A stretch of DNA of 64,000 bases from Pseudomonas phage Pa_WF01. The translations under genes and the position numbers were made by a program. The notes beneath the pieces are model-generated. The model was not told the origin of the DNA. It did no database searches and saw only the letters and a list, made by a program, of their open reading frames with translations. The stretch lies in the sequence record OQ848593.1; one strand, written 5' to 3'. This document shows, piece after piece, positions 6,834 through 56,800 of this stretch. Each line of letters starts with the position of its first letter. The stretch's first letter is position 1.

Positions 6834-7342
6834 CTATCTCAGCCCGTCAGATCCGGTGGGTAGCAGAGGTGCTGCTCTTCGCCATCATCGCCCTCTACGC
6901 CTACAACAAGGGGTTCGTGAAGGCGGAAACCAAGACCAATGCGGAGTGGGAACTCCGCATGATGCAGGCCGAAAGGACTGCGGAAGAAAACAAAAAGGCC
7001 ATCGAACAGAGTCTGCTCGAAGCCATGAACGAGGTAAAAAAAGATGCTGATGAACAACTGGCTGATCAAGCTTCCCGCATTGCTGCTGCTGATGCTCAGT
7101 CTCGTAGCCTGCGGGAGCAAGTCGCCCGTCTACGTGACGACCTCATCGCCGACGGTGCCAGAGCTACCACTGAGCGGCATGCAAGCAACGCTGCCTCTGT
7201 GGTGCTCGCCGACCTGTACGGAAGCTGTGTCAGCCATCGACAAGAACTCGCAGGAGCGCTTGACCGAAGCCATGCAGCAGGATTGACATGCCAGAAGAGC
7301 TACGCTATTGTGAAGTCACTGGGGCACGCTCCACCCCAGTAG
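6830..7342 (+). CDS. Rz: i-spanin (Rz-like, 170 aa) with an N-terminal transmembrane helix and a periplasmic coiled-coil.
   Basis: ATGA overlap with the endolysin stop; TM segment VAEVLLFAIIALYAY; charged coiled-coil C-terminus; contains an embedded +1-frame lipoprotein gene. Confidence 0.75.
   Translation: MTISARQIRWVAEVLLFAIIALYAYNKGFVKAETKTNAEWELRMMQAERTAEENKKAIEQSLLEAMNEVKKDADEQLADQASRIAAADAQSRSLREQVARLRDDLIADGARATTERHASNAASVVLADLYGSCVSHRQELAGALDRSHAAGLTCQKSYAIVKSLGHAPPQ
7044..7286 (+). CDS. Rz1: o-spanin (Rz1-like outer-membrane lipoprotein, 80 aa) embedded in the +1 frame of the i-spanin gene.
   Basis: Signal peptide MLMNNWLIKLPALLLLMLSLVAC with lipobox LVAC; Pro-rich mature part (PTVPELPL); fully embedded, which is the classic Rz/Rz1 architecture. 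Confidence 0.75.
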   Translation: MLMNNWLIKLPALLLLMLSLVACGSKSPVYVTTSSPTVPELPLSGMQATLPLWCSPTCTEAVSAIDKNSQERLTEAMQQD

Positions 7343-8870: not shown

Positions 8871-10655
8871 TTACTTCAGTGCCTTGGCCAACTTGTCAGC
8901 CGCGTCGCCGGGCATACCGAGAACGGTCCAGCCCTTCTTCTTGGCTTTCTTGAAGTCCAGGCAAGCCTGGGCTTTCGCCTTGTCGCCCTTGCTGTCTACG
9001 AAGGCTTGCCACAGAACCTGACCTTGTTCGACCAGAGTCAGGGCAGTCTTCTTGTCGGACGGCAGGGGTTCACCCTTGGCCTTGAAGGTGTCCCGAACAG
9101 GCTGAGCCACGGGCTTGGCTTCCACCTTGACGGACTTCAGCTTCTTGGCCTTGCGGGCAGGTACACGGCTCTTCGACTTCTTCTCGGCCTTGACCTTGAC
9201 GGGCTTCGGCTCAGCGACCGGCACGTCCTTGGTCAGCGACGGAGCTTCCGGTTCCGGCTTCTTGGTTTCCGTCATGACGGTATCCACCACGTCCAGAACA
9301 TCCACCTTCTCACCCACAACTTCATTGGGAGTAGTCGGAAGCGAGCGGGCTTCAGGTGCGTTCTTCGGAACAGCCGTCTGCACCTTGTTCTTGGTGCTCG
9401 CCGGACCCTTGTGCACCACGATGCTGGAGCCACGGTGACCGGTGATCTCCACATGGTAGGCCGGTTCGCTGTGCTGACCCGACAGAGCAGCTCCCAGCAT
9501 GCGGGAAGCTTCCTTGATGTCGGTCATGCTGCGGTTGGCCTTCAGTGCACGCATGGCTTCGTCCGGCAGTTCGAAGAGGATGTGGTAGGCGCGGACACGC
9601 ATCTTGTTCGCGTCGTAGGACGGGACGGCGATCACGTCTTCCGGGGCCACCTTGGCCAGCACACACACGTTGCCGCTGAAGCTGCCCAGGTACTGACGGC
9701 GAGCCACATGCAAGCCATTAGAGCACTCGTTGCGGCGATCCGGGTCCACGAGGGACTCGTTCATGCACACCAGAGTACTGACGCCTTGCGGCACCTTCTG
9801 CGAGTGGATGTCACGGTAGGAGAACTCCTTGTGGTCATCCGGGCCGCCTTTCAACAGCAGCTTGTAGATCACGATGCAACCATCATCGGCGATGGGGAGA
9901 TCCCCACGTTCGATGAAGCGCATCAGATCTTGCACGCTGTGGCTGCGCTTGGCAGATACGGCACCAGCCCGGCGAAGGAAGTTCTCGATGCCGACAGTGC
10001 TGCCCTTGGCTTTCGACTGAACAGCTGCGGTAAGCTGGGTCTTGAGCTTCTGAGCATCCGGCACGATGGTTCCCTGGTCGGTCACGGCGATGATGGTGTC
10101 ACCTTCGCCCACGTCATCATCCGGGTCTTCCGACTCTACGCCGTCTTCGCTGAGGTTCTCCAGGTCTGCGGAACTGAACTGCGGGGCAGATGCCGGTACA
10201 GCGTGGGCCAGGATGTCATCCACAGCCTTGGCCAGTGCGGGATCCTTGATGGTGACCTTTTCGACCACCTCTTCCACTACACCCTGCCCAGCATCCGCGT
10301 CCGGTGCGCAGTCGCCAGGAACCGCGCCAGCGGTGACGGGAGCGACGGGAGCAGCTGGCTCGGATGCGGAAGCTGCCGAGAAGAACTCTGCGACCTTCTT
10401 CTTCGCCACGCGGAAGAACCGCATGATGCCGCCGGACTTCTTCTCGGCGGCTTCGTAGACGTTGTTGATGACCAGCAGGTCTTCGGAGTAGTCCACTTCA
10501 CCACCCTGGCTCAGGATGGGGACGTACTTCTCGACGAAGATGGCGACACGGGGATCGCCTTGGGGGATACGGATCTGCTCGGCAGACCCTTTCACGTACA
10601 ACGTCAGGTACCTTTCGTCAAGGACAGCACCTACGACAGTTACTTTGTTGCTCAT
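8871..10655 (-). CDS. Large hypothetical protein (594 aa) with a Lys-rich C-terminus. It is putatively rIIB-like, based on its position directly downstream of the rIIA-like gene.
   Basis: Third-position GC is high. C-terminal block KPVKVKAEKKSKSRVPARKAKKLKSVKVEAKPV is histone-H1-like. The rIIB call rests on synteny alone. Confidence 0.4.
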   Translation of the reverse strand: MSNKVTVVGAVLDERYLTLYVKGSAEQIRIPQGDPRVAIFVEKYVPILSQGGEVDYSEDLLVINNVYEAAEKKSGGIMRFFRVAKKKVAEFFSAASASEPAAPVAPVTAGAVPGDCAPDADAGQGVVEEVVEKVTIKDPALAKAVDDILAHAVPASAPQFSSADLENLSEDGVESEDPDDDVGEGDTIIAVTDQGTIVPDAQKLKTQLTAAVQSKAKGSTVGIENFLRRAGAVSAKRSHSVQDLMRFIERGDLPIADDGCIVIYKLLLKGGPDDHKEFSYRDIHSQKVPQGVSTLVCMNESLVDPDRRNECSNGLHVARRQYLGSFSGNVCVLAKVAPEDVIAVPSYDANKMRVRAYHILFELPDEAMRALKANRSMTDIKEASRMLGAALSGQHSEPAYHVEITGHRGSSIVVHKGPASTKNKVQTAVPKNAPEARSLPTTPNEVVGEKVDVLDVVDTVMTETKKPEPEAPSLTKDVPVAEPKPVKVKAEKKSKSRVPARKAKKLKSVKVEAKPVAQPVRDTFKAKGEPLPSDKKTALTLVEQGQVLWQAFVDSKGDKAKAQACLDFKKAKKKGWTVLGMPGDAADKLAKALK

Positions 10656-10666
10656 TGGTTTCTCCT

Positions 10667-13183
10667 TCAGCCACGAATAGCTGTTTTCAGTAGTTTGACT
10701 GCCGTGGTGACAGTCTTCTTATCGCCGAGTGCACGCCGCACTTCCGAGGTATTCAGAAGAGCTACTATGGGTGCTTCAGAGATCTTCTTCAGCATTTCCA
10801 GCACTTTCTTGTCGCCCGGAATTGCCTTGATCTTCTTGCCCAGTGCCTCCAAGGATTCCTTCTGCTCCTGTGTGAAGAAGCGGGAGTCCATGGAGTAGAC
10901 CGTGGTGAGCAATTCTTCAGCCGCAGGATCTTCAGGCTCCGGCAGTTTGAATACCTTACGGCACTCTTCCACCTGCATCATCTTCCTGATGAGATCAACG
11001 TATTCCGGGTCTTTCGCAGCATCCAACAACAAGGTGTAGCGAAGAGAGCAAGCCTTGCTGAACTCAGGTTTTTCAACCTCTTCCAGGAGCTTTACCAGCA
11101 GGAAGTCACGGGCACTTTTGACGCCCTTCTTCTCCATGTTGGCTTCTTGGGTTTCGGTGTACACAACTGCGCCCACATCGCCGAAATTCTTCAGCAGGTA
11201 GGCCGAGCACACCTTGTCCAAACCACGTACACACTTGCGGGTGTAGTAGTCGCTCTTGGTGGGGAGACGCACGTAGTAGGAGGGATTCTCCACCCGAGCT
11301 ACAGATTCCGTCCTTGCCATCTCCAGGGAGAAGATGCCGCTGCTATGGCAAGCCGAGAGCATCGGATATCCCTTCTTCCTTGGCTTGGACACGACTGGGG
11401 CAGCACCGGTCTTCGAGTCGTACTCGATTACCTCAGCTTCCTTGGTCAGGTCCAGTACTTCCCAGCCCTTCAGAGTACTCAGGGCTTTCCTGGCTTCCTC
11501 CACCTTCTTCATGCTACGCGGAACCACGTAAGCGATGAGGGCGTCGTCTGCACTGTAACCGCCTACCCACTCGTCGAGATCCTCCACACGGCTATGGATG
11601 TCACGACGGCTGTGCGTCAGGACAATACAGCGGCGGAACAGCGGCACATAGGACATCGGATTCTTCGACCAGTACGAAACCAACGGATACCCATTGTGGT
11701 TGTTGTAGTTCCGAACAGAATCCCCGTTGTGCAGGTGACGCCCAGCGCCGTACCAGATCAGCCTAGTGGGGCACAGCCCTTCTTCGTGGATCAGCGGCAA
11801 CAGCTTGGATACCAGGTGCTTCTGCCCCCACTTGCGTACTGCCAGTGCCTGCCAGGAATCCTTGCGGAACTTCGTGAGGTTCTCGAAGGTGGCACTAACG
11901 TAGTGATGGTGGGCAGATGCCATCCCAACCTTCTTCATCAGCCGGATGAGTGAAGGGTACAGGGTGTTTCCTTGGTTTCGCGGCTGCTTTCCTATGAGGG
12001 AAAGCTGTTGCAGCAGGGTCTTGAAGTTCTCCTTTTCATCCCGGCTATTCGAATGGTACAGCTGGCTCAAGCCAACCTCTTCCATGGTAGACATGAGTCC
12101 CTTGGTGGCCAGCCTGGACCCCTTCATGGAACTTACGAGCACGCGGTTAGCCGTTACTTCTTCAGGCCGCATCATACTGCCTGCCCTGGCTTGCACCAGT
12201 TCTTCACAGGACTTCGCCAGGATGTCGCTGCGTTCCTTGTTGATGTTCCGCGTTTCACGGAGGAACTTGTTGAGCAGCTGAAGAAGAGTCTTGCGGGTGT
12301 GGTCTTCCATGGACAGCGCTTCCCGAGACGGTGTGATCGACACCGAGTTCGGTTTGGCCTGGAGCACCAGCACGTTGACGTTGCCCGGCAGAGAGTTCAC
12401 GAACTTGTGCACAGGATCGTACACCTCGGCGATGAACTCATCCCGCTCTACGGGGTAGATGACATCGCCATAGCGGACACAGATGATGTGGCCGTTGTAT
12501 TCGAGCACCTGCTCGGTAGCGATGGACCAGTCCTTGGTTACCTGGGAGAAGGGCAGAGTGGGCAGCTTCACCCCGTTGAAGTTGGCCAGCATTTCGGCGT
12601 TGGCCACGATACGGCGAATCAGCGTACCGAATCGACGTACGTCTTCGTTCTTGATATTGATCCGTACTTCCAGACCGGTCTGGTCGGTAGGGATATCGGT
12701 CACCACCGGGGTGATGGCAGGACGGCCACCGTTCTGGATGGAAGCCTTCTGCATGCGGTAGACGTTGGTCTTTCCTTCGTGGTGAATGGTCACCTGGAAG
12801 TTGTCCACGTAGGCGAAGGGGGACTTGCACCCCAAACCAAAGCCGCCAGTCTGGGAACCGTCGTGCTTCTTGGTGGAGCCGCCGTAGACACCGTAAATGG
12901 TGCCCACGTCGTCGGGATGGATACCAGGTCCGAAGTCACGGATGACGAATTCGTCGTCCTTGAGGGTGATCTCGACTGGGGTCTCTTTCTCGATGCCTAC
13001 CATCTTGTGGGCATCGTAGGCGTTGCAGAGAGTTTCCCGGACGACGGCAAGAATCTTGTCCGTGTACAGGGAACTCGACAGAACTTGGAAGAAGGCCGGG
13101 TCATCACTGATGCCCATGGAAATTGCTTGCTTGCCGCCGATCACAACGTGAGTGGCGTAGTCTTTCTGATGAGTTACCTGCAT
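10667..13183 (-). CDS. rIIA: rIIA-like protein (838 aa) with an N-terminal GHKL/HATPase_c ATPase domain.
   Basis: N-box RETLCNAYDAH, G1 box IRDFGPGI, G2 box GGFGLG; size and phage context match rIIA. SD AGGAG precedes the ATG at 13183. Confidence 0.6.
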   Translation of the reverse strand: MQVTHQKDYATHVVIGGKQAISMGISDDPAFFQVLSSSLYTDKILAVVRETLCNAYDAHKMVGIEKETPVEITLKDDEFVIRDFGPGIHPDDVGTIYGVYGGSTKKHDGSQTGGFGLGCKSPFAYVDNFQVTIHHEGKTNVYRMQKASIQNGGRPAITPVVTDIPTDQTGLEVRINIKNEDVRRFGTLIRRIVANAEMLANFNGVKLPTLPFSQVTKDWSIATEQVLEYNGHIICVRYGDVIYPVERDEFIAEVYDPVHKFVNSLPGNVNVLVLQAKPNSVSITPSREALSMEDHTRKTLLQLLNKFLRETRNINKERSDILAKSCEELVQARAGSMMRPEEVTANRVLVSSMKGSRLATKGLMSTMEEVGLSQLYHSNSRDEKENFKTLLQQLSLIGKQPRNQGNTLYPSLIRLMKKVGMASAHHHYVSATFENLTKFRKDSWQALAVRKWGQKHLVSKLLPLIHEEGLCPTRLIWYGAGRHLHNGDSVRNYNNHNGYPLVSYWSKNPMSYVPLFRRCIVLTHSRRDIHSRVEDLDEWVGGYSADDALIAYVVPRSMKKVEEARKALSTLKGWEVLDLTKEAEVIEYDSKTGAAPVVSKPRKKGYPMLSACHSSGIFSLEMARTESVARVENPSYYVRLPTKSDYYTRKCVRGLDKVCSAYLLKNFGDVGAVVYTETQEANMEKKGVKSARDFLLVKLLEEVEKPEFSKACSLRYTLLLDAAKDPEYVDLIRKMMQVEECRKVFKLPEPEDPAAEELLTTVYSMDSRFFTQEQKESLEALGKKIKAIPGDKKVLEMLKKISEAPIVALLNTSEVRRALGDKKTVTTAVKLLKTAIRG

Positions 13184-22100: not shown

Positions 22101-22930
22101 TTCAGCCTCCCGGTGCTGAAGTCGAGGGTACGGGCGAATTCCTTCTTGCCCGCTTGGGGCTTGGAGTCTTCGCCGGCGTTGATGTAGTACTGGTGGATCA
22201 AGGTGTTGATCAAGCGGACGCCAATGTTGCTGTCGGGATACTGGCGGCCGATCTCCTTGATCAGCCATTTCTCGGCCTTCTTGTGGTCTTCCTTCGGGAA
22301 GAGAGAGCGGTAGTTCGCCCACAGTTCCGACTCCTTGAGGTACTGGACCATCGCCTCCAGAGTCGGTTTCTCCAGGTTGTAGACCAATCCAGTACGACCG
22401 ATGAACTCGGTCTTGACGCCGCACTTCAGCAGTTCGGTGGCGTCCATGTTCTCCTGGCCGTTGAACGCACCGGCGAAGATGAACAGGGATCGCTCGACGC
22501 TGACCGTGTTGTACTTGCCGTAGTCGCCGAAGGTCTGGGTGGTACTGCCCTCCAGCACACGCAGGAACTCGTTCTGCACGCCGATGCTGATCTCGTTGGC
22601 ATGGCTGTCGTTGGAATTACCAGAGAGGAACAGCTTGTCCATCTCGTCGCAGAATACGACGTTGGGGACATTGCCGAGGGTAGCCAGTGGGGCCAGTGCC
22701 TTACTCAGGCTCAGGCCGGAGTAGCCTTCCTTGGTCAGCGATGCACAGTTGACCTCGGTCATGGGCAGCATGATGTCCAGGCGATTGCACTGGTCCATGA
22801 TGTTGAAGGACTTGCCCGAACCAGAAGGGCCGGTCAACCAGAAGTGAGGACGAATCTCGCCTTCGGACGCTTTGAAGATGAGCAGGATCTTGCCGATCCG
22901 CTCGATTGTTTTTTCATTGGCTTGGGACAC
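22097..22930 (-). CDS. P-loop NTPase (277 aa).
   Basis: Walker A GPSGSGKS; Walker B VVFCDEMDK. Confidence 0.65.
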   Translation of the reverse strand: MSQANEKTIERIGKILLIFKASEGEIRPHFWLTGPSGSGKSFNIMDQCNRLDIMLPMTEVNCASLTKEGYSGLSLSKALAPLATLGNVPNVVFCDEMDKLFLSGNSNDSHANEISIGVQNEFLRVLEGSTTQTFGDYGKYNTVSVERSLFIFAGAFNGQENMDATELLKCGVKTEFIGRTGLVYNLEKPTLEAMVQYLKESELWANYRSLFPKEDHKKAEKWLIKEIGRQYPDSNIGVRLINTLIHQYYINAGEDSKPQAGKKEFARTLDFSTGRLK

Positions 22931-22988
22931 TGGTTAGTCTCCTTTAAACGGGAAGATTAATAAATCTGGGAATGCATAACCCCAAATA

Positions 22989-23174
22989 TTACTCGGAAGG
23001 GGTCCACTCACCTACAAAGAGTAGAAGGGTATTGTGATACCCCATCATGGCTCGCATGAAGTCATGATGACTGCCCCCAGGAAGCAGATGTCTTGCTTCT
23101 TCGAGGGCTTCTTTTAAGGAACTGTGGGTTGGGTAGAGCTTCTGCTCTACCGGACTGAAATCACTGAAATACAT
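22989..23174 (-). CDS. Hypothetical small protein (61 aa).
   Basis: SD AGGAG 5 nt before the ATG; AT-rich. Confidence 0.5.
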   Translation of the reverse strand: MYFSDFSPVEQKLYPTHSSLKEALEEARHLLPGGSHHDFMRAMMGYHNTLLLFVGEWTPSE

Positions 23175-23182
23175 TTAAACTC

Positions 23183-23413
23183 CTAGTAAAAAAAGCCATA
23201 CTTGAGGAGGTCTTTAATACCCCTCCAAACTGACTTGGTAATCCTAAAAACCACAACCAGAAAAATAAGAGGCAATCCGATAGGCCATAAAATTCCTAAC
23301 GCTGCTGAGCGGTCATCCTCAAGGCCACCGAAAAGTGCGTAATCCACGATTACAGCTGTTATGATAGCTGCCGCAAAGTAGGACGCTATCAATACCGCAA
23401 TGGTACCTAACAT
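23183..23413 (-). CDS. Small membrane protein (76 aa, 2 TM helices).
   Basis: ATG at 23413 with SD AAGGAGA (6-nt spacer); hydrophobic helices. Confidence 0.55.
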   Translation of the reverse strand: MLGTIAVLIASYFAAAIITAVIVDYALFGGLEDDRSAALGILWPIGLPLIFLVVVFRITKSVWRGIKDLLKYGFFY

Positions 23414-23633
23414 AAGTTGTCTCCTTGGTTTAATACACACAGTAGAATGCCGACAGTTACTCAGTGACTGCATCCTGTGCAGTTTGGAAACTCGGCATTC
23501 TCTTTATGTACTAATAGTCTGACTAGACTGTCTCGCCTTATGCGACGCTATGCGCAGGGAGTCGTTTAAAGGATTAACGCTAATGCATGTCTCTTGCTCC
23601 TAAACCAATAAAAGAATGAACAAACAGGACAAG

Positions 23634-23650
23634 AGCGTACGGAGTACGCT
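23634..23650. promoter_or_regulatory. Copy 1 of a 17-bp palindromic hairpin AGCGTACGGAGTACGCT (6-7-bp stem, 3-nt loop GGA).
   Basis: An exact second copy lies at 26407-26423. On the minus strand a T-rich run follows. It could be an N4-type vRNAP hairpin promoter or a small terminator. Confidence 0.5.
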
Positions 23651-23869
23651 AATGAATAACCTGTTCTCCTGTGAGGTACATCATCCCATCTGTACCGAAG
23701 CGGCCCGCCAGCCAACCTCGGAAGAACCCATGAATCAAAGGGTTGTCAGCGTAGTCTCCGAGACGGCTACGCTTACTCGCCAGTTCTTCAGGGGTGATGA
23801 TTACCCCGGCGAAGGACCACACACAGTGGCGGTACTCTTCTTCAAATTCCTTTCGCAGTTCGTCGCTGA

Positions 23870-24385
23870 TCACTTCAGCATAGAACGCAGGTTGTTCAGC
23901 AGTGCCTCGCCACCCTTCAGGGACTGGACGTACAAGCACGCATCGTAGACGGTTTCGTCCAGGCCATGCTTCTGAACATGCTCCTTGCCGAAGCCGAGGG
24001 CATCCAGTAGTTCAGCCAGCTTGTTGCTCATCTGGGTGACCACCGCATCTTTCAGGATGGTGGTGGTCTGGTCGTCTCCCTTCTTCACCTCGAATTGGGC
24101 GACAGCTTCCCCAGAGTCCATCATACCCTGGATGTTCTGGCCGGTGAGCAGTACGTCGCTCTGGTGTAGACGACCCGGTTGCATGACCGGACACTTGACC
24201 TTGTTGGCTTCCCGTAACAGCGTTTCAACCTGACCGCTGAGGTTTTCCACCATCTTGTTGGTTGCATCGATATCTTCGAGGAGGATATCTCGCTTGTTGT
24301 TGAGAACTTCTACCCGACGACGCAATCTCTGCATCTTGCCCTTCATGGCAGAGATCTCGTATTGAAACTTGTCTTCGCTCATCAT
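23870..24385 (-). CDS. Hypothetical coiled-coil protein (172 aa).
   Basis: TGATG overlap with the upstream gene at 24385; heptad-rich N-terminus. Confidence 0.55.
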   Translation of the reverse strand: MMSEDKFQYEISAMKGKMQRLRRRVEVLNNKRDILLEDIDATNKMVENLSGQVETLLREANKVKCPVMQPGRLHQSDVLLTGQNIQGMMDSGEAVAQFEVKKGDDQTTTILKDAVVTQMSNKLAELLDALGFGKEHVQKHGLDETVYDACLYVQSLKGGEALLNNLRSMLK

Positions 24386-24945
24386 CACTTGTTCACCCCG
24401 TAGAGTTGGAAATGGTCGTTCAGTTCGGTGTAGCGGCGGCCATGCTTGTCGATCACAGCGATCTCGAAGCAGGCATTGCCACACCAGTTGCGGTGGATGG
24501 CGGTACCGAGCTCTTCGATTGTGACCTTCTTCCTGACACGTTCACCCGGCTCCCCTGGAAGCATTACCAGGGTGCCGCCGATGTTCTGCTTGGTGCAGAA
24601 CTTCACATGGTCGTGCGTTACCTGGGCATGGATCAACTGCCATGCACCGGCAGTTAAGGGATGACGTACCCACTCCATGCCTTTCACGTACACCACATGG
24701 TTGACCACATTGACGCCGACACGATCATTGCGCACGATGAAGCCATGACGCACATAGAAGAAGGAGCCCTTCAGGGCGCTGTACAGCTTTCCTACAGACA
24801 AGCCAGTGATGTAACCGGTCTGCTGGTGTCCCCAATTGTCGTGGTAGGTGAACTCCACCAGCTTGCCGTCAGCCAGGAAGTACAGGCAGCGCTCGATGGG
24901 AACTTCTATGGGTTTACCGCGCTGAAACCAGGTGATCTTTTCCAT
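24385..24945 (-). CDS. Hypothetical protein (186 aa).
   Basis: High third-position GC; coupled to neighbouring genes. Confidence 0.6.
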   Translation of the reverse strand: MEKITWFQRGKPIEVPIERCLYFLADGKLVEFTYHDNWGHQQTGYITGLSVGKLYSALKGSFFYVRHGFIVRNDRVGVNVVNHVVYVKGMEWVRHPLTAGAWQLIHAQVTHDHVKFCTKQNIGGTLVMLPGEPGERVRKKVTIEELGTAIHRNWCGNACFEIAVIDKHGRRYTELNDHFQLYGVNK

Positions 24946-25499
24946 CAGCGCTTACCCTTGACCAGACGACGATGAGCCTTCGTCAGGTTCTCGCAGGAAC
25001 GCAGCAGCAGATGGGGATTGTTGCTCCGCTGGAAGTTGGTGTACTCACGCATGACAGCATGTACTAGGGTGTCCATGGTCAGTTCGGCATCGCTACGGCG
25101 CTGCTTGCGAACCTTGTCCTTGAGGATCTCGATCTCCTTCTTGGCTTCAGCCAGCTGCTTTTCCAGGCCGGTGTCCACAGGCTCGAAGACTGTCTCTTCC
25201 ACGACGAGTACGGGAACTGTTTCCTGGTCTCCATGGAATGGCTTGGCGAGTTCAGAGATCTTCTTGTCACGGGCCTCTACCGCCTTCTTCAGATCCTTGA
25301 TCTGGTTCTGGAGACGGTAGTTGTCGCTCTGGGTACGCGCATATAGACGACGGTTAACACGCGCTTCTTCCCGCGCTTCCCGAATTTTGTTATCCATTAC
25401 ATCTATGATTTGATCTTTTCGCTGTACTACCGTCTCATGGTTTTCAATCAGGCTGGTCACTTTTTCATCGAAACGCTTGCGGGAAACGAATGGGATCAT
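24945..25499 (-). CDS. Hypothetical coiled-coil protein (184 aa).
   Basis: ATGA overlap at 25496-25499; charged heptad repeats. Confidence 0.6.
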   Translation of the reverse strand: MIPFVSRKRFDEKVTSLIENHETVVQRKDQIIDVMDNKIREAREEARVNRRLYARTQSDNYRLQNQIKDLKKAVEARDKKISELAKPFHGDQETVPVLVVEETVFEPVDTGLEKQLAEAKKEIEILKDKVRKQRRSDAELTMDTLVHAVMREYTNFQRSNNPHLLLRSCENLTKAHRRLVKGKR

Positions 25500-26122
25500 T
25501 GGAGTTCTCCATCTAGATATACCTGAAGGAACTTTCCATTCAGGGTGTATTTGAGTTGAAGTGTGCTGCCCTCGTAAGCACGTACATGAAGATTCCGTAC
25601 ACGCATATAGATGTCGTACATGAGGTCAGCAACAGCGAAGTTGTCAGGGTATTTTCTACGGGCTGCCCTGTACCCAACACGAAGCCAATCCATAGCGGTA
25701 CTTGCCGCTTCCTGGATCACCTTCCTTGCCACTGGTTTAGAGAGATACTGAACTTCTCTTTCTATGGCTTCTTCGACAAGCTTACGAAGAAGCGAGAGGA
25801 ACTCTTCCTCTTCATCTCCCAGCTTGAAACGCTTGCCTACGTTGTCGATGAGAAAGTCATTCTCGATGATGAACATGGTGATGTCGTAGTACATCACCTG
25901 CTCAGGACGGGGTTCTGAGCCTGGGAAGCGACTCCACCAAGCAGTTTCACCACGAAGCCACCACATAGCACCGAAGGCCCGCAACTCCGCTTCTAGACCT
26001 TCAGTACTGTCGATGTGCTCGAACGAGTCATGGATGACTGTCAATGGATCTCCTGGCTCGAAGGTATGCATATCCTCCATGAGCCAGCCGCCATCCTCGA
26101 AGACGAAGTTACGGACTTGCAT
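25496..26122 (-). CDS. Hypothetical protein (208 aa).
   Basis: High third-position GC; no recognisable motif. Confidence 0.6.
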   Translation of the reverse strand: MQVRNFVFEDGGWLMEDMHTFEPGDPLTVIHDSFEHIDSTEGLEAELRAFGAMWWLRGETAWWSRFPGSEPRPEQVMYYDITMFIIENDFLIDNVGKRFKLGDEEEEFLSLLRKLVEEAIEREVQYLSKPVARKVIQEAASTAMDWLRVGYRAARRKYPDNFAVADLMYDIYMRVRNLHVRAYEGSTLQLKYTLNGKFLQVYLDGELQ

Positions 26123-26125
26123 GGC

Positions 26126-26350
26126 TTAGCTCCCGACGTGAGCGTTCAACTTCTGGAGTTCCTCGTAGATGCCGTAGCCCAGGAACCAGAAACCGAAGGT
26201 CATACCGATGCCGACAGCAGCGCCCAGCATTACCAGCAGGGCCACGAGGCCGTTGTAGACTGTCAAGGCGGCGACTGCCACGACTACGAAGACCAGGACA
26301 GCAGCGATCCAAGCCATGGTGTCCAGGAATTTCAGGTACGATTTGCGCAT
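26126..26350 (-). CDS. Small membrane protein (74 aa, 2 TM helices).
   Basis: Two long hydrophobic helices (AWIAAVLVFVVVAVAALTV... and ALLVMLGAAVGIGMTFGFWFLGYG). Confidence 0.6.
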   Translation of the reverse strand: MRKSYLKFLDTMAWIAAVLVFVVVAVAALTVYNGLVALLVMLGAAVGIGMTFGFWFLGYGIYEELQKLNAHVGS

Positions 26351-26406
26351 GGTGTTACTCCTTCTTCAATTGAATGAACTCACTGGAAATCAGCGAAAAT
26401 GCAAAA

Positions 26407-26423
26407 AGCGTACGGAGTACGCT
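26407..26423 (-). terminator. Copy 2 of the 17-bp hairpin AGCGTACGGAGTACGCT. On the minus strand it is followed by TTTTTGCATTTT directly after the stop of the upstream small gene.
   Basis: Minus-strand reading TGA-GCGTAC-TCC-GTACGC-TTTTTGCATTTTCG. Alternatively it is an N4-type hairpin promoter for 26126-26350. Confidence 0.5.
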
Positions 26424-26575
26424 CAACCCCTGTTCTTCACAATGCACTCTCCATGGGCATAGAAGAGATTGAGGTAGAACTTGGGAGACTCTCCGAACTT
26501 CTTGGACCTCTCTTCTGCACTGGGGACCAGTACTATTGGCTTACCACAGTACTTGCATAGCCTGTGTTTACTCAT
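26423..26575 (-). CDS. Small Cys-rich (zinc-ribbon-like) protein (50 aa).
   Basis: CKYCGKP...HGEC Cys pairs; ATG at 26575. The longer track ORF uses an upstream alternative start. Confidence 0.45.
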   Translation of the reverse strand: MSKHRLCKYCGKPIVLVPSAEERSKKFGESPKFYLNLFYAHGECIVKNRG

Positions 26576-26672
26576 GGTTTCTAAGCTCCCCTCAAAAAAA
26601 TAAGCGCCCGATCCCATTTCTGGGATCAGGCAAATTCAGGTTCATGGAGCGTCTGGAAGACGCCCACTCACC

Positions 26673-27674
26673 TCAAGACAGCGCATACTCGCTTTCACGG
26701 ATCAGTTCAGACAGGTTGTGGATCGACCGGTCGTAGCTGACATGGCTTCCAGTGATCTGGTGAACGATGTCGTCGAGGACGTTGCTGTCGGCCAGTTCGG
26801 CGAAGATGTTGATGTAGTGCTGGCGCATCTCGTTGCAGAAGTTCGGGTGGCACTTGAACTCATCGTGCACGGTGACCAGTTCGAAGGGTTCGTGGACCCG
26901 CATGGTGTCCCACAGGGCACACAGAGCTTCCAGGTGGTCAGTCTCCAGCTGACGCACGTTGACAGCGTTGATGTGGTTGAAGATCACTGCATCGACCATG
27001 TTGGTGCGGTCGTACAGGTCTTCGTAGACAGCCAGCTTGGCGTCCCTGGCGACCTCGGCTTCGCACTTGCCAGAGTGACGGTCCATCAGTTCACCCCAAA
27101 CCAACTGCATTACCTTGGTGATGGCTTCACGATCGTAGTTGCAACGACGGTGCATGGAACGAAGCACGTAGGCGTCGATGGAGTGGATGATGTTGGCAGC
27201 GTTCTTCACAGCACGCTCTACACCGCAGTCCTGCTTGTAGATGTACTCGAAGCTTGCACCATCCATCTCGTCCACTTCCACCCGAGTCTCGAACACGTCT
27301 ACCGACTTGACTATGGAGTGGAAGTTGTCCGGCAGCACCCAGGAGTGCTTCATGGCGTAGGGCTGCCAAGTGTTGATCAGGTCATCCCGCATCTCGTTGG
27401 CGATGGGAGCTACCATCTCCACGCCTTGGTAGAAGGCTTCCAGTTCAGGAGTGTCCTCACCGAACAGGTTCTTCGGCTCAGCCTTCGAGCCATAGAAGTG
27501 AGTCATGGTTGCAGTCTTGATGTCCGACCGCTTGATCTCCCCTACCGACTCACCCAGGTGGGTGGAGGCAGCAGTGGTGACCAGGCTGTAGGCATCCTGA
27601 CGGAAGCCAGTGTTGATGAGGTTGGTGGCTTGGGCACCAGATTCACAGCCACCCAGGGCCGACATTATCTGCAT
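26673..27674 (-). CDS. Exon 2 of the RNA polymerase II large subunit (T7-like single-subunit RNAP, N4 gp16-like). It carries motifs B and C; 333 codons.
   Basis: Motif B IKRSDIKTATMTHFYGS matches T7 RSVTKRSVMTLAYGS. Motif C VTVHDEFKCHP matches T7 LIHDSFGT. N-terminus MQIMSALGGCESGAQATNL matches T7 IQHFSAMLRDEVGGRAVNL. Confidence 0.8.
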   Translation of the reverse strand: MQIMSALGGCESGAQATNLINTGFRQDAYSLVTTAASTHLGESVGEIKRSDIKTATMTHFYGSKAEPKNLFGEDTPELEAFYQGVEMVAPIANEMRDDLINTWQPYAMKHSWVLPDNFHSIVKSVDVFETRVEVDEMDGASFEYIYKQDCGVERAVKNAANIIHSIDAYVLRSMHRRCNYDREAITKVMQLVWGELMDRHSGKCEAEVARDAKLAVYEDLYDRTNMVDAVIFNHINAVNVRQLETDHLEALCALWDTMRVHEPFELVTVHDEFKCHPNFCNEMRQHYINIFAELADSNVLDDIVHQITGSHVSYDRSIHNLSELIRESEYALS

Positions 27675-28674
27675 CGCTTGTTTTCACAGAAGGTCGTTAA
27701 TCTTCTGCCGTGTCAGCAGGACGTGGGAGATTTCCAAATATCCAACCTTTCAAAGGTTTCGTCGGTGCAGGTTTGTGCTGATTGCACTCCCGCATGCGAT
27801 TGGCTATTTGATGTTCCTTAAGTCCCAAAGTAGGTGCTACATCTTTCTTGGTTTGATCGTGGATTTCTACGTAAACCCCTTCTGGGGTCACGTAGTACCA
27901 AGGCTGGAATGCTGTATTTGAGGTACCAGCATGGCCCTTGTCTTTGCACTTAGTTCCACGAATCTTTTCAGCCGTCGCTGCATGAGCAACAATCATCGCT
28001 GGGGTGCGATTACCACTATAGCGACGGCTGAAAGTTTTACCTGCTTCAGTACGATCCACACTGATGCCTTTGTTCCAGCTGACGGAACCATGGCAGTCAT
28101 GCGTTGCAACACGCTGGTTGTACCAGTTGGGTGACGCAACACAGTTGTGTTCTTCGATGTAACTCCGTTCGAAGTCCATCAACTCTTGGCGAGTATTGAA
28201 GGTTCTCAAGATGGTTTTCACAGGCGGGTTGTCTTTTCGGTCCACCGGTAAGCCCCTACCAGATCCGAGATACGTGGTATCTAATTCTGGCGGTAGCTTG
28301 CACGAGCGGGCACCTATGTAGTACATCCCGTCTGCGAAAGTAAGCAAGTAAGCGTAGTGGTTCATGTGACCTCCTAGTTGTTCTGGAGTGCATATGTTAC
28401 CACGCCCTACTGACACTGCTGTGAATTTCTCCACAGGCAAGACTATATCTTCACCCCAGAAGGGTGCTTCCCATTTCCACCCACTTGGGTGTACGGCCTA
28501 AGCCTAGTCGTTGAACCTTCTCCCATACGGAGCTTGGCTGCTGATTGCCCAATCCACACACTTTTCAAACCTTCGCTTTGCCTTTCGGCTCGCAGTGGTA
28601 GCGTGGCTCTAAGGGGTTCCCAGCAATTAAGGAAGTGATCGACATGGATTGCTCCATGAAGGGGCTAGAAATCA
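27675..28674 (-). mobile_element. Group I (IA2-like) self-splicing intron, 1000 nt, with a GIY-YIG homing endonuclease ORF in its 3' region. It interrupts the RNAP II large-subunit gene at catalytic motif A.
   Basis: Minus-strand conserved elements: P AATTGCTGGGAAC (about 28611-28632); Q AATCAGCAGC (28538-28547); R GTTCAACGACTAG (28504-28516); S AAGATATAGTC (28441-28451). Exon 1 ends ...GGU and the internal guide GCCC lies at 28661-28666. An in-frame UGA is the first intron codon, and omega-G precedes the exon 2 AUG. Confidence 0.75.
27697..28365 (-). CDS. GIY-YIG homing endonuclease (222 aa) encoded within the intron.
   Basis: HYAYLLTFADGMYYIGARS (GIY-YIG); RSYIEEHNC. SD AGGAGG 4 nt before the ATG at 28365. 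AT-richer than the flanking exons. Confidence 0.8.
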   Translation of the reverse strand: MNHYAYLLTFADGMYYIGARSCKLPPELDTTYLGSGRGLPVDRKDNPPVKTILRTFNTRQELMDFERSYIEEHNCVASPNWYNQRVATHDCHGSVSWNKGISVDRTEAGKTFSRRYSGNRTPAMIVAHAATAEKIRGTKCKDKGHAGTSNTAFQPWYYVTPEGVYVEIHDQTKKDVAPTLGLKEHQIANRMRECNQHKPAPTKPLKGWIFGNLPRPADTAED

Positions 28675-28914
28675 ACCCGAGCAGCAGGCATCCAGCCCTA
28701 CGAGGTGGCCAACAGGCTCACCACGCTGAGCAGCACGGATGGCCATGACAGCCTTGAGGTACTGCGGTCGAGTCTTCTCGTTGCACTCCAGATTCTCCAG
28801 GTTGTCGAAGTTGTCGTAGCACCATTGGATGCGCTGTTCGAAGAGCCATTTGTCATGGCCCATTTGGTTTGCAGCGTCGATCAGAAGGTATTCGAAAGCG
28901 GTGTAAGGGGTCAT
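28675..28914 (-). CDS. Exon 1 of the RNA polymerase II large subunit (80 codons), ending at motif A.
   Basis: PYTAFEYLLIDA matches T7 PFCFLAFCFEYA. C-terminal VGLDACCSG matches T7 LAFDGSCSG (catalytic Asp of motif A). The following codon is an in-frame TGA inside the intron. Confidence 0.75.
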
Positions 28915-32972: not shown

Positions 32973-33063
32973 GATTCAGGTTCCTTGTAGGGAGAGGTAG
33001 TAGATTCAGATCAGAAGTGGTTCAGCCAGAAGGCCATTACACAGGCGTAGCCTGCTCTTGCTC

Positions 33064-33249: not shown

Positions 33250-33321
33250 GATGAAATTCCTAAGTAAACAGTGAGTTGAGATGGTTTGGATTACCACCCC
33301 ATGGCCGTAGGCCATGAGTAC

Positions 33322-36402: not shown

Positions 36403-36865
36403 GGTAGTACTCCAGAGTAGTGAGATGTTGATGTGAGGACAGGATTAATCCACAGCACAGCCGAAGGCTTCTCTTGTTCTAGAAGTACAGACAGTTGATT
36501 GGGTAGAAGGAGAGTTAAACAAGGTGGGGTAGGTAGCGCGGGAATTCCAAAACTCAAGAGGTACCGGGGGGGATAACCGGATTTGGAGAGCCGCAGACTG
36601 AAGTACTGAATCCGTACTTAGCTAAACGAAAATCCCTCAGATCCGCGATAGCTGAATCCAGACTTCTATGATGAAAATCCCTACAACCCAAATCACTTCC
36701 ATCTCCCCAAACCAATCCCTTTCCCCCTAGCTCCCATAACCCATAGCTGAGGTTAAGTCGCCAAGCACCGAGCGCAGCGAGGTGGGCAGGATGACTGGTC
36801 CGAAGCTATGGGTTATGGATACCTGTGGATATCTATAGCCAAGTTATCCACAGGATATACACACT
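36403..36865. promoter_or_regulatory. Non-coding region (463 bp) dense in inverted and direct repeats. It is a candidate origin, promoter cluster or genome terminus.
   Basis: 15-bp inverted repeat CCATAACCCATAGCT/AGCTATGGGTTATGG (36736-36815) flanks GAGCGCAGCGAGG. 10-bp inverted repeat CCTGTGGATA/TATCCACAGG (36819-36856). Direct repeats GAAAATCCCT twice and CTGAATCC twice. Hairpin AAGTAC-tgaatcc-GTACTT. Confidence 0.5.
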
Positions 36866-38983: not shown

Positions 38984-39708
38984 ATGACTACCACCCCCGC
39001 CACTACTGCTCAGCCTGGGATGTTGACGGTAGATGAGTTCCGCTCTGTGCTACCTGACAAGATGAAGAAGTCCATCTCCCCGGAAGTACTGAAGACACTC
39101 AATGACATGCTGTCCGATCCTGACATGGCGGAAGCCTTCAGGGACAACATCATTGGGTACACCCATGTGATGAAGGAAGGTAAGTTCAAGCTGGACAACT
39201 ACCTCCATGCTTCGAAGTACGTGACCTATAAGCTGATGGGGTTGAACAACACCGAGGCTTACACCCGTACCTTCCCCACCAAGATCCAGCGGTGGACCCA
39301 ACAGGGTGTGGCCAACAAGGACATGGCCAGCTACATCACCAGCTACAACAAGTCCAAGCTGGTGAACCTCATCCTGGAGCAGGCGCTGATCCCATGCCAT
39401 GTGCTCAACGCTGACATCAAGCAGAAGGCAATCAACCATCTGTTTCACCTGATGCAGAACGCACAGTCGGAGAAGGTCCAGCAGGAATCGGCCAACAGTC
39501 TGCTCACTCACCTGAAGTCGCCGGAGAAGACTGAACTGAAGATCGATGTCTCTGACCGTGCAGCTGATGCCATCGACATCATGCGGCAGAACGCTGAAGC
39601 ACTGGCCCGTCTCCAGCAGGAGATGATCGCAGGCAAGCAGATGTCGGCGAAGGATGTGGCTGAACGCAGCATGGACTTCGGTGAAGTCATCGAAGGGGAG
39701 CTTGCCTA

Positions 39709-53877: not shown

Positions 53878-56800
53878 ATGGCTGATTTCGACTTGGATCA
53901 ATTCCTGTCGGATCGTCAAGAGGCGAATGCCGGGGCTACCCCGGCATTCGACGCTCTGGACTTTGCCAGTGCGGGCCTGGACATGAAGGGTTCGCAGAAG
54001 GCTTACGACCTCGACGGCATCCGCGAGCGCAAAAAGCGCAACGTGGAAGAATCCCTCATCGGCAAGATGGGTATCACCCCTGGTGCTGCTGGCACTGAGA
54101 TCCTCAACGCTGCTGCTTCCTTCGTATCCGGTACTGGCCGTGCTCTCGGCGACGTGATTGCTCTGCCGATCAACGCTGCTGCTGACATGGGTCAGGCTGG
54201 CGTAACCAACGAAGCCATCGAAGCCTACAACCGCTACGTCTCCGGCCAGATGCAGGAAGGCGATGAAGCCATCCTGAGCCAGACTGCTGCCGGTGACGAC
54301 GGTGTTCCCCAGACCATGCTGCAACGTATGCAAGGTGTGGACGAACTCCGCAAGCTTTCTACCAACGTGGACAAGTTCTTCGATTGGTCGAGCATCGTAG
54401 ACACTACTCGCCGTGACCAACTGAGCGACGACATCGCTGATGCGACTGCTGGTGGCGTAGAACGTCTCCGCAATGCAGGTGAGTCCTTCAGCCGTGGCGA
54501 GATTCTGGATGGCTTGGTGCAAGGTGCACTCGGTGTTGGCCAGACCGCTGCTACCGCTATCGGTGCATCGGCAACCAACCCGCTGGCAGTCGGCGAGTAC
54601 ACTGTGGAAAACGCTCCGCAGATGCTGGCCTATGCCGCTAACCCTGTGCTGGGTGCTGCTACCAACGTGGGCTACGCCTCGGATGAATACCGTGAAGGCA
54701 TCACCGAGTACCAGGCTGAGAACCAAGGCCAGCTGCCGGATGCTGACGATCGTCTGAAGATGGGTCTTGCTGCTGCTTCTCTGGCAGTAGCTGAGCAGGT
54801 AGCCGATGCTGGCATCCTGCGTGGTATCCGTGGTGAAGGTGGTGGTTTGATCCGCTCTACTCTTGGTTCCAGCGCTCGTGAAGGCGTGACCGAGGGTTAC
54901 CAAACCTGGGGTGAGAACGTTGCTCACCTGAAAGACACCAGCCTGGAAGAGATCGTCGAAGCTGCAACCATCGGTGCTGCTGTCGGCGGAACCATGAACA
55001 TCGGTGGCCGTGCTGCTGTAGGTGCCCGCTCTGGTGCTACCCGTGCTGAGGCTGCTTTGGCTTCGCGTGAAGCTGTGAATGCTGCCCGTGAAACCGGCGA
55101 CATCTCTGCCCTGACCGATGTGACCTCGGAGTCCTATAACCCTGCTGGTGCAGTGGTAGTTCTCCAGGAACAAGTCATGGCTGACGGTGTGACCCAAGAG
55201 GTCAAGGACCGTGCCCTGGAGCAGGCTGACACCATCGAGCAGGAAGCTGCCCAGCGTGTATCTCAGCTGGAGCAGGAACAAGTACTGTTCAGCGAAGAAG
55301 GTCTGGCCAAGGTAGAGCAAGCCATCGAACAACGTGAGCAGGCCAAGCAAGGTGCTGATGAAGCTACCGTTGCTCGCCTGGACGAAGAACTGGCCAACCT
55401 GAGCGGCGTACGTGAGCAGATCCTCAACGTCACCCCCGAGCAACGCCAAGCTCAAGCCAAGGAACTGAAGGATGCCCAGCAGGTACTGACCGCTACCCGT
55501 GACGCCATCAAGCGTTTCCAAGTGGAAGCCGCTCCGAAGGCTGCCGAGGTAGAGACCTTGGTTCAGGAAGCTGCTGTACAACCGGAAGCCTCCGAGCGTC
55601 TGGTCACCCTGACCATGATCAACCCGGATGCACTGAGCCTGGAGCAGGTGGATGCTCTGGTAGCTGACACCAGCAATACTCTGACCACTGAGCAGCGTGC
55701 ATCCCTGCGTAGCTTCAGCGAAGCACAGGTTGCACTCAACGAACTCAAGGGTCTGAGCGGTGTTCGCACTGACATCGAGACTGGTGGTGATGGCTTCAAA
55801 GGTCTGTCCCAGTACCGTAACGCTGTGCGTATGGCCCTGATGAACGGCAACGAAGAAGCTGCTGCTGGTCAGGTAGACCAACTGCGTGCTTTTGCTGACA
55901 GTCGTGTGGCGAAGTTCAACGCCATTGATGCTGCGTACCAGCAAGTCAAAGGTACCGATAACTCCATCCGTATCGTACGTGATGAAGCCGGTAACTGGAC
56001 CGAGGCACCGGAGTCCATGACTGCACGCCAACTGAAGTCGGCTGGTGGTCTGGAGATCTCAGCCCGTTCCTTCAAGCTGCGTGATGCTGTAGCACTGGAA
56101 GCCACTGCACTGTCCCGCTCGGCTGAGTCTCTGGGTGAACTGGTCAAGGCCGGTCCTATTGCTCGTCCGGCCCCTGTGGTACAAGAAGCTGCCCCCGTAC
56201 AGGAAGCGCCTGTACAGGTGGCTGAAGAGGTGGCCCCGGTAGAGGCGCCTATCGCTCAGGTCACTGAAGATGTCCCAGTCAGTGAAGCCGAGTCGATCCA
56301 GGCAGAACCTTCTACCGAGGCCGAAACTGGTGAACTCACGGCTGTCCGTGAGGGTGAAGCTGTGCGTGGTCAGGAAGTTGCCGCCGAGAACTACCAGACT
56401 ACCAACCTGGTTTCCGCCTTCTTCCAGCAGTCCCCGGCTCGCAATGACGGTGACACTCAGAAGCCTCTGGTAGCAGTCAAAGACTTCGCTACCAAGATCC
56501 GCACTGGTGAAGGTCGCATGGCTGAGTTCGCTGGTGTGAAGAGCTTCACCGGCCAGCAACAGTCCGCCATCAAGCAGTTCATGAAGTTCCAGCGTGCTGC
56601 CAAGCCGATCATCGAGCGTACGCTGAAGCCATACACCTCGAAGACCAGCGATGCCAGCCGCTACTACTTCCGTGACTACGCTCAGTTCCTGGTGAACGCT
56701 GACGGTACTCTGGACGAGAACCTGGCCACTGCCATTGCCTACGGTGCGTACGACTGGGCTATCGATGCGGCCAACAACCTGGTCAACACCGATGCCGGTA

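Follow-up and report, generated by a model that had tools for sequence, protein, structure and literature searches.

Hairpin promoters are a known kind of element. The early promoters P1 to P3 of the phage N4 virion RNA polymerase (vRNAP) were reportedly described in work by Glucksmann in 1992, Davydova in 2007, and Gleghorn in 2008. The enzyme reads a hairpin on the template strand through positions −11A/G, −10G, −8G, and +1C; −10G and −12A form a sheared pair, the specificity loop contacts −9C/−10G and −8G, and four template adenines serve as a ruler ahead of the start site (PMC4496689). The N4 features used below come from this review and from the N4 genome itself. Here, we describe three short hairpins in a 64,000-nucleotide stretch of Pseudomonas phage Pa_WF01 (sequence record OQ848593.1), which we call the window and which represents a Litunavirus, an N4-like podovirus of Pseudomonas aeruginosa (Schitoviridae, Migulavirinae). 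Two of them are identical, at 23634–23650 (copy 1) and 26407–26423 (copy 2), and the third lies at 26649–26663. Based on sequence comparison, we estimate a probability of roughly 70% that all three are N4-type hairpin promoters, with copy 2 possibly doubling as a partial terminator. This reading would correct an annotation of 2010, in which one of the sites was listed as a terminator, and would add two sites that were not listed.

The comparison that bears most directly on this proposal is with the Luzseptimavirus LUZ7, whose transcription was mapped by ONT-cappable-seq, with primary transcription start sites (TSSs) enriched for 5′-triphosphate ends (Putzeys et al. 2022; bioRxiv 10.1101/2022.03.18.484859, Table S2; PMC9163698). 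Two of its early TSSs, PE7 (8259) and PE8 (9543), were seen by 5 min in that study. Checking these positions in the LUZ7 genome, we found that the TSS is in both cases a G located 14 nt past the loop center of an identical hairpin, GCGTTC-TCC-GAACGC (PE7, ...gagtatgccctgtcttaactgagtggGCGTTCTCCGAACGCtccattG; PE8, ...attctaatAGCGTTCTCCGAACGCTttcatG). Within positions 1 to 69000 of LUZ7, the motif GCGT..TCC..ACGC is confined to PE7 and PE8. On the Watson strand of this region, only six perfect hairpins combine a TCC triloop with a stem of 5 bp or longer, and five of these six have a mapped TSS at +14/15, namely, PE7, PE8, PM2, PM3, and PM4 (chance P of ~5e-17). Putzeys et al. assigned PE7 and PE8 to the early, vRNAP-dependent class and the remaining TCC-loop hairpins to the middle class (RNAPII/Drc).

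The preliminary description of the Pa_WF01 sequence had pointed to a 17-bp hairpin element present twice in intergenic positions of a minus-strand gene block, and this is what we find. On the plus strand, AGCGTACGGAGTACGCT occurs exactly twice with 0 mismatches, at the positions of copies 1 and 2, and the reverse complement of this near-palindrome matches the same two places with 3 mismatches. When up to 3 mismatches were allowed, 4 matches were observed (each copy being counted on both strands), against a mean of 0.13 per shuffle, and none of the 100 dinucleotide-preserving shuffles reached 4. Both copies form a perfect 7-bp stem with a 3-nt GGA loop on the plus strand, reading AGCGTAC-TCC-GTACGCT on the coding strand. 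They overlap the stop codon of the upstream open reading frame (ORF), copy 2 beginning, as described, at the stop of the ORF at 26423–26575 (TGA, 26425–26423) and copy 1 sharing the TAG at 23651–23649. Since the early and middle genes are located on the minus strand here, the plus strand, with the GGA loops, is the template. When we scanned the entire window for triloop hairpins, we detected the third member, which had gone unnoticed (plus strand, GCGTCT-GGA-AGACGC; coding strand, GCGTCT-TCC-AGACGC; 6-bp stem) and has the same loop and the same GCGT/ACGC stem base as the two copies. In total, the Watson (minus) strand of the window carries five TCC-triloop hairpins: these three, which are intergenic with stems of 6 to 7 bp, and two 5-bp hairpins inside genes, at 26519–26531 and 9748–9760.

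The gene order relates these hairpins to LUZ7. Reading along the minus strand, the gene for the RNAPII large subunit (RNAPII-L) ends at 26673–26675, the third hairpin follows 9 nt past this stop, and then come a terminator-like hairpin (26632–26595), a 50-amino-acid (aa) ORF (26423–26575), and copy 2. Copy 2 leads through TTTTTGCATTTTCG to the gene for a 74-aa membrane protein with two transmembrane segments (26126–26350) and to five further genes, then to another 74-aa ORF (23649–23873), whose TAG stop overlaps copy 1; beyond copy 1, ~200 nt of noncoding sequence precede the next gene. In LUZ7, PE7 is located directly after the RNAPII-L stop, in a context that can be aligned with the window at 26663–26649 (...gagtatgcgctgtcttgaggtgagtggGCGTCTTCCAGACGCtccatG), the two loci having gtgg...tccat(t)G in common. 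PE8 precedes orf29, the gene to which it was assigned; the orf29 product is 45% identical (E = 2.6e-19) to the 74-aa protein encoded right after copy 2. Since the RNAPII-L stop context and the orf29 homology agree, the third hairpin and copy 2 are positional orthologs of PE7 and PE8, respectively. The resemblance includes the genomic positions, the consensus GCGT-NN-TCC-NN-ACGC, the use of one hairpin twice, the orientation, and a G located 13 to 14 nt past the loop center. The two phages differ in the inner pairs of the stem (TTC/GAA in LUZ7 versus TAC/GTA and TCT/AGA in the window), in the spacing, the G being 1 nt closer in the window, and in the sequence TTCAT, which LUZ7 has where copy 2 has T5. 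Moreover, LUZ7 has no copy 1 and no equivalent of the small RNA (sRNA) locus that follows it. Activity was measured in LUZ7; for the window phage, we infer it.

By analogy with N4, negative supercoiling would extrude the perfect inverted repeat, and the template (plus) strand would form a 6- to 7-bp stem capped by a 5′-GGA-3′ triloop, with a sheared G:A pair and the central purine flipped out. A phage single-subunit RNA polymerase would then bind the hairpin and start RNA at the G located 12 to 13 nt past the loop center, which predicts starts at 26643 (third hairpin), 26402 (copy 2), and 23630 (copy 1), each within 2 nt. For copy 2, the putative start lies within the invariant T-rich spacer and initiation region (26394–26406), 13 nt from the loop center at 26415; for copy 1, it lies 12 nt from the loop center at 23642. 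The third hairpin and copy 2 would restart transcription right after the RNAPII genes, while copy 1 would launch a conserved, structured sRNA of ~200 nt, the sRNA_29.1 of phage PEV2. At copy 2, the RNA hairpin followed by U5GCAU4 may also partially terminate incoming transcripts, in a terminator-promoter pair like T41/PM3 of LUZ7, to which we return below.

Copy 2 is also reminiscent of an N4 promoter. On the coding strand of the N4 genome, P2 reads AAGAAGC-TCC-GCTTCTT-TT-GG, and a sister hairpin before gp15 reads AAGCTGC-TCC-GCAGCTT-TT-GG; copy 2 shows the P2 layout of a 7-bp stem, a TCC loop, a T-run, and a G (AGCGTAC-TCC-GTACGCT-TTTT-G). All three hairpins of the window have the N4-type shape, with a 5- to 7-bp stem and a 3-nt loop on the template strand, and their GGA loop provides the G(−10), R(−11), and A(−12) of the template, as in N4 P2. 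Copies 1 and 2 match N4 at −9C, −10G, −11G, and −12A, while the third hairpin has T at −9. The template-strand DNA hairpin, at −6.2 kcal/mol versus −5.2 for N4 P2, is at least as stable. With P1 to P3 in general, the elements also have in common a coding-strand T-run before the predicted start and a G as the putative initiating nucleotide. Their stem sequences are unrelated to those of N4, and their predicted loop-to-start distance is 12 to 14 nt versus 11 nt. They also lie 9 to 13 kb into the genome, after the RNAPII genes, whereas the N4 sites precede the first early genes. More precisely, the hairpins are ~9.9, 10.1, and 12.9 kb from the left end, in the same orientation as the predicted early promoters Pe1 to Pe3 discussed below (Pe1, at 36448–36477, marking the left end). 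This depth is beyond that of N4 P1 and P2 but similar to that of the N4 hairpin at 4546 before gp15 and of LUZ7 PE7 and PE8. The N4-type promoter reading, which the preliminary description had based on hairpin shape, thus gains support from the orthology to mapped LUZ7 TSSs and from the likeness to N4 P2. No alternative promoter of the sigma-70 type is apparent: we rejected this candidate, since an 18-kb region gave 2 weak matches on the plus strand, fewer than in shuffles, with none near the hairpins.

Conservation within the genus is strict. The window matches 71 phage records at 80 to 96% identity (PASB7 at the top; LIT1, PEV2, PA26, and YH6 among them), and we compared 20 unique Litunavirus sequences over a 4-kb region, in which 40% of the columns vary and the 95th percentile of invariant runs is 11 nt. 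All three hairpins are invariant in this set, the third being unchanged across 21 sequences, while their flanks vary; the invariant runs measure 32 nt at copy 2 (TGAGCGTACTCCGTACGCTTTTTGCATTTTCG, 26425–26394), 25 nt at copy 1 (23658–23634), and 18 nt at the third hairpin. Since nothing changes within Litunavirus, evidence for covariation comes only from the comparison between genera. There, the two inner pairs of the stem read TC/GA in Luzseptimavirus; copies 1 and 2 have AC/GT instead, and the third hairpin has CT/AG. The pairs are always complementary, while the TCC loop and the GCGT/ACGC stem base remain fixed. PA152, a second Luzseptimavirus, has the same two GCGTTC-TCC-GAACGC hairpins as LUZ7 in different flanks. 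Absence from syntenic positions in related genomes, which had been named as a sign against a functional site, is therefore not what these genomes show. In the more distant P. fluorescens phage 98PfluR60PP, the gap after RNAPII-L holds CTGCAC-TCC-GTGCAG, followed by a terminator-like hairpin. In phage Zuri (Zurivirus), no TCC-loop hairpin is found near the RNAPII genes, and Pseudomonas schitoviruses therefore do not all carry the element. A degenerate scan of IMG/VR with GTGGGCGTNNTCCNNACGCTCCAT returned LIT1, PEV2-type phages, YH30, and LUZ7 only, adding no diversity, and AGCGTNNTCCNNACGCTT, in which 14 bases are specified, matched more than 120 times in unrelated contigs, as expected by chance. 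A search of IMG/VR for related loci with a neighboring 208-aa protein led to 4 loci, all from known isolates. A loop that is kept in a fixed orientation fits a hairpin recognized by a polymerase and would not be needed by a plain terminator.

Several observations weigh against a promoter role. PE7 and PE8 are weak in LUZ7, with 197 and 1111 reads per million (RPM), respectively, versus 3,900 to 46,000 for PE1 and PE3 to PE5 (Putzeys et al. 2022). The −8G contacted by the N4 polymerase is not found in any of these hairpins, the base being A in copies 1 and 2, C in the third hairpin, and T in LUZ7 PE7 and PE8; since the latter two are active without it, −8G is evidently not required in Pseudomonas phages. 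The invariant G lies at +13 from the loop center (copy 2 and the third hairpin) or +12 (copy 1), versus +14 in PE7 and PE8 and +11 in N4, the LUZ7 hairpin promoters as a whole ranging from +12 to +15. Copy 1 has no LUZ7 ortholog, orf32 and orf33 being 20 bp apart there (orf33 is the homolog of the window gene at 22989–23174). In PEV2, the annotated sRNA_29.1 starts 7 nt upstream of the copy 1 hairpin, which, if exact, would make the hairpin part of the RNA. Both copies abut stop codons, as terminators do, and copy 2 fits a terminator consensus in our scan and has been published as a terminator. A palindrome that serves as the operator of a dimeric protein would be equally expected to show compensatory changes. 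Finally, we found in the literature no cappable-seq study of a Litunavirus and no mapped transcript 5′ or 3′ ends in any member of the genus, so promoter activity in the window phage rests on orthology.

The operator hypothesis would make the inverted repeat a double-stranded binding site for a dimeric phage or host regulator. It would account for a perfect 7 + 7 palindrome with a 3-bp spacer that is repeated, invariant, and altered in mirrored half-sites. However, the TCC spacer is asymmetric, and its orientation with respect to transcription is constant among all of the copies and in LUZ7, 98PfluR60PP, and N4; in addition, the LUZ7 TSSs fall at a fixed +14/15. A Pfam scan of the flanking small ORFs yielded no candidate DNA-binding regulator. 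We regard this explanation as extremely improbable.

The terminator question deserves closer attention, as N4-type promoters resemble rho-independent terminators when read on the coding strand. This mimicry explains why the element was taken for a terminator both in the preliminary description, as one of two equal options, and by Ceyssens et al. in 2010 (PMC3715699, Suppl. Table S2), who listed GCGTACTCCGTACGCTTTTT, at LIT1 nt 9218, as the putative factor-independent terminator T2. LIT1 T2 is identical in sequence to copy 2 and occupies the same locus; its listing was a prediction from sequence that preceded any TSS mapping in the group, in a table without copy 1 and without the third hairpin. 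If the hairpins were purely intrinsic terminators, the RNA AGCGUAC-UCC-GUACGCU would release the polymerase after the upstream gene and would play no part in initiation. The stem of copy 2 followed by TTTTTGCATTTT agrees with the consensus, in line with the LIT1 listing, the stop codons of the upstream ORFs overlap both copies, and T7-like RNA polymerases, including vRNAP, do recognize terminators made of a hairpin and a U-run (termination properties of mini-vRNAP are covered in PMC4496689).

The T-rich run on the minus strand that the preliminary description ascribed to both copies is, however, clear at copy 2 and only loosely present at copy 1 (CTTGTCCTGTTTG). As a U-tract directly after the stem, it is found at copy 2 (UUUUUGCAUUUU) and neither at copy 1 (CUUGUCCUGUUUG) nor at 26649–26663 (CCAUGAAC). 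The RNA stem-loop of the copies, with 7 bp, 4 G-C pairs, and ~−9.5 kcal/mol, is at the weak end, versus −22 kcal/mol for the adjacent terminator-like hairpin at 26595–26632. In LUZ7, PE8 has a mapped 5′-triphosphate start and no mapped 3′ end; indeed, Table S3 of Putzeys et al. lists no transcription termination site (TTS) at PE7 or PE8, the nearest being T12 (8301) and T14 (9964). The loop sequence and its orientation, which termination does not need, are kept across genera and in N4 promoters. Furthermore, the PEV2 RNA-seq notes still call the genes past both copies early. Pure termination thus seems quite unlikely to us, and the equal weight first given to it appears too high, although partial termination may occur at copy 2. 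For LIT1 T2, the evidence favors a promoter, or a promoter combined with partial termination, over a terminator.

A related possibility is a bifunctional role, with termination as the main activity of the hairpins and reinitiation as a secondary one, which would insulate the RNAPII operon from the downstream block. LUZ7 provides the precedent. Its PM3 hairpin (GCCGCT-TCC-AGCGGC-TCTTTCG; TSS at 39375) coincides with the intrinsic terminator T41 (TTS at 39374; 54 to 68% efficiency), which indicates that one hairpin with a T-rich stretch can both terminate and initiate; PM3 is moreover the strongest middle promoter. Copy 2 is laid out like T41/PM3, has a better U-tract, and is invariant over its entire 32-nt block. 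Such a role would apply to copy 2 at most, since copy 1, the third hairpin, PE7, and PE8 are without a U-tract and PE7 and PE8 are without a TTS, and the adjacent TTS and TSS of LUZ7 could partly result from the calling of read ends. We consider termination as the main function unlikely, and we retain promoter activity as the preferred function of all three hairpins.

The third hairpin raises a different point. Its predicted TSS is located 11 nt before the terminator-like hairpin at 26595–26632 (minus strand), a 12-bp GC-rich stem followed by T7 that coincides with a 32-nt invariant run. The analog of this hairpin in LUZ7 is T12, downstream of PE7, a leaky terminator with 6 to 20% efficiency (Putzeys et al. 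2022), and the arrangement is the same in 98PfluR60PP. The predicted promoter therefore appears to fire straight into a leaky terminator.

Copy 1 probably serves as the promoter of sRNA_29.1, with a start near 23630, as suggested by the 17 nt that it has in common with copy 2 and by the capacity of TCC hairpins to predict LUZ7 starts. The RefSeq record of PEV2 annotates this noncoding RNA at 12035–12220, describing it as [quoted passage not shown] and it labels all of the genes past both copies “transcribed in early infection.” A highly expressed sRNA at the site of copy 1 and early genes past both copies are in agreement with promoters at these positions. The papers reporting LIT1 and PEV2 RNA-seq (bioRxiv 10.1101/248849, PMC8244752) contain nothing on sRNA_29.1 or on transcript ends at the hairpin sites.

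In the window, the corresponding locus spans 23430–23630 on the minus strand. These ~200 nt are more conserved than the flanking genes and include the longest invariant run of the alignment (38 nt, 23561–23524). RNAalifold proposes both a stem, AGTCT-N4-AGACT, that encloses a hypervariable loop and a long 3′ hairpin in which pairs are replaced in a compensatory manner, G-C by A-U in two sequences and C-G by A-U in one. The single-sequence fold has a z-score of −2.7. An Rfam scan of 22500–27500 at E values up to 1 returned no family for the hairpins or for the sRNA region. A start-stop mini-ORF preceded by a Shine-Dalgarno sequence (AGGAG-N8-ATG-CAT-TAG, 23601–23580, minus strand) is invariant in 19 of 19 aligned sequences and may be a ribosome-binding or regulatory feature.

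The position of the sRNA also bears on the hypothesis that the hairpins function within the RNA, either as sites for RNase III or RNase E or as protective stem-loops, and thereby delimit the upstream mRNA and sRNA_29.1. The PEV2 annotation, beginning just before copy 1, would place the hairpin at the 5′ end of the RNA, and hairpins located right at stop codons commonly stabilize 3′ ends. We treat the PEV2 coordinates as approximate, because they derive from ordinary RNA-seq coverage and because the annotated feature stops within the apical loop of a conserved hairpin. In LUZ7, the ends mapped at the orthologous hairpins are primary 5′-triphosphate ends located downstream of the hairpin, and RNA processing leaves unexplained why the GNA loop on the template strand is conserved and common to N4. 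This explanation is, in our view, very improbable, and initiation from copy 1 is the better account of the locus.

A separate observation concerns the gene that follows. The 96-aa ORF at 23183–23473 (minus strand) has an internal ATG at 23413, after AAGGAG, which is the probable start. Over its first 60 nt, the ORF overlaps with the 3′ hairpin of the sRNA. This gene is annotated inconsistently in relatives (231 to 291 nt) and is missing from some that keep the sRNA region.

The predicted promoters differ from those proposed earlier for this genus. The LIT1-type early hairpin promoters predicted from LIT1 and PEV2 can be located in the window on the same strand: Pe1 at 36448–36477, Pe2 at 33292–33321 (ATGGCC-TAC-GGCCAT), and Pe3 at 33032–33061. 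They are hairpin promoters as well, in the same genome and with a 3-nt template loop of the G-N-A type. However, their loop is TWC rather than TCC, their stems are of the GGCC or CAGGC type, they have a conserved TG..TGG downstream, and they are confined to the first 3.5 kb. In LUZ7, the promoters with TWC loops (PE1, PE3, PE4, and PE5) are likewise at the left end, start at +12/13 rather than at the +14/15 of the TCC-loop class, and are 10- to 200-fold stronger.

Which polymerase would use the TCC-loop hairpins is a choice between vRNAP and RNAPII-Drc, both of which are candidates. In middle promoters of the LUZ7 type, a GC-rich hairpin with 6 or more stem pairs and a loop of 3 to 4 nt precedes the start G by ~15 bp (PMC9163698), and all three hairpins of the window have this shape. 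They resemble PM2 to PM4 as GC-rich TCC hairpins, those of LUZ7 having 6-bp stems and a start G 14 to 15 nt from the loop center; with PM3, which is also an intrinsic terminator, the hairpin at 26649–26663 has the T-A closing pair in common. Unlike PE7 and PE8, the LUZ7 orthologs of the window hairpins that were already present at 5 min, PM2 to PM4 have other stems, were first detected at 10 min, and were attributed to RNAPII/Drc. The middle promoters of LIT1 have been called “impossible to identify,” and the paper on Drc describes no promoter sequences.

Since the loop and the spacing are common to the early promoters PE7 and PE8 and to the middle TCC hairpins of LUZ7, all TCC hairpins may form one class. 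We tentatively suggest, as a speculation with the odds against it, that TCC-loop hairpins constitute a second promoter class in Pseudomonas N4-like phages, apart from the strong left-end TWC class and used by RNAPII with Drc or by both phage polymerases. The three hairpins of the window would then be hand-over points from early to middle transcription, copy 2 acting as a terminator and a promoter and copy 1 as the dedicated promoter of an abundant sRNA with a mini-ORF.

If the assignment is right, it has practical consequences. Phage therapy cocktails against P. aeruginosa make use of Litunaviruses such as LIT1, PEV2, DEV, and Ab09, whose promoters are so far represented by three predicted hairpins at the left end. 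The GCGT-NN-TCC-NN-ACGC hairpins would add three regulatory sites just past the RNAPII genes, one of which would be the proposed promoter of a conserved and highly expressed phage sRNA. A simple rule, that a TCC-triloop hairpin predicts a start ~13 to 15 nt downstream, is right for five of the six such sites in LUZ7. The resemblance of these promoters to rho-independent terminators on the coding strand also calls for caution in annotation.

Some features of the surrounding DNA are worth recording. The 50-aa ORF at 26423–26575, between the third hairpin and copy 2, is annotated in relatives and has a CxxC...HxxC pattern; it scores 19.6 bits for the zinc finger family PF18508, below the cutoff of 26.5, and contains the 5-bp TCC-loop hairpin at 26519–26531. 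The RNAPII-L gene itself (N4 gp16-like, by annotation in relatives) is interrupted in the window (26673–28914, minus strand), with a C-terminal part at 26673–27674, whose stop immediately precedes the third hairpin, and an 80-aa N-terminal fragment at 28672–28914 with a weak match to PF00940. The inserted 247-aa ORF (27697–28440), for which Pfam gave no match, carries the annotation homing endonuclease or endonuclease in VL1 and phPLST. In LIT1, PEV2, PA26, and others, the gene is uninterrupted (1242 nt), which suggests a mobile intron or an endonuclease insertion in some Litunaviruses only. Among the relatives, two records deposited as Photobacterium phages TEMp-D1/D2 (PP852687 and PP852688; host, Photobacterium damselae) share ~91% identity with P. 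aeruginosa Litunaviruses over 5 kb, so that the host label is unexpected. Elsewhere in the window, a further long perfect hairpin with a 9-bp stem and TCC within the loop (ATGCGGAGT-TCCC-ACTCCGCAT) is located at 6939–6960 on the Watson (minus) strand, and a 12-bp hairpin (CGAATGCCGGGG-CTA-CCCCGGCATTCG) is located at 53924–53950; these may be additional promoter or terminator elements.

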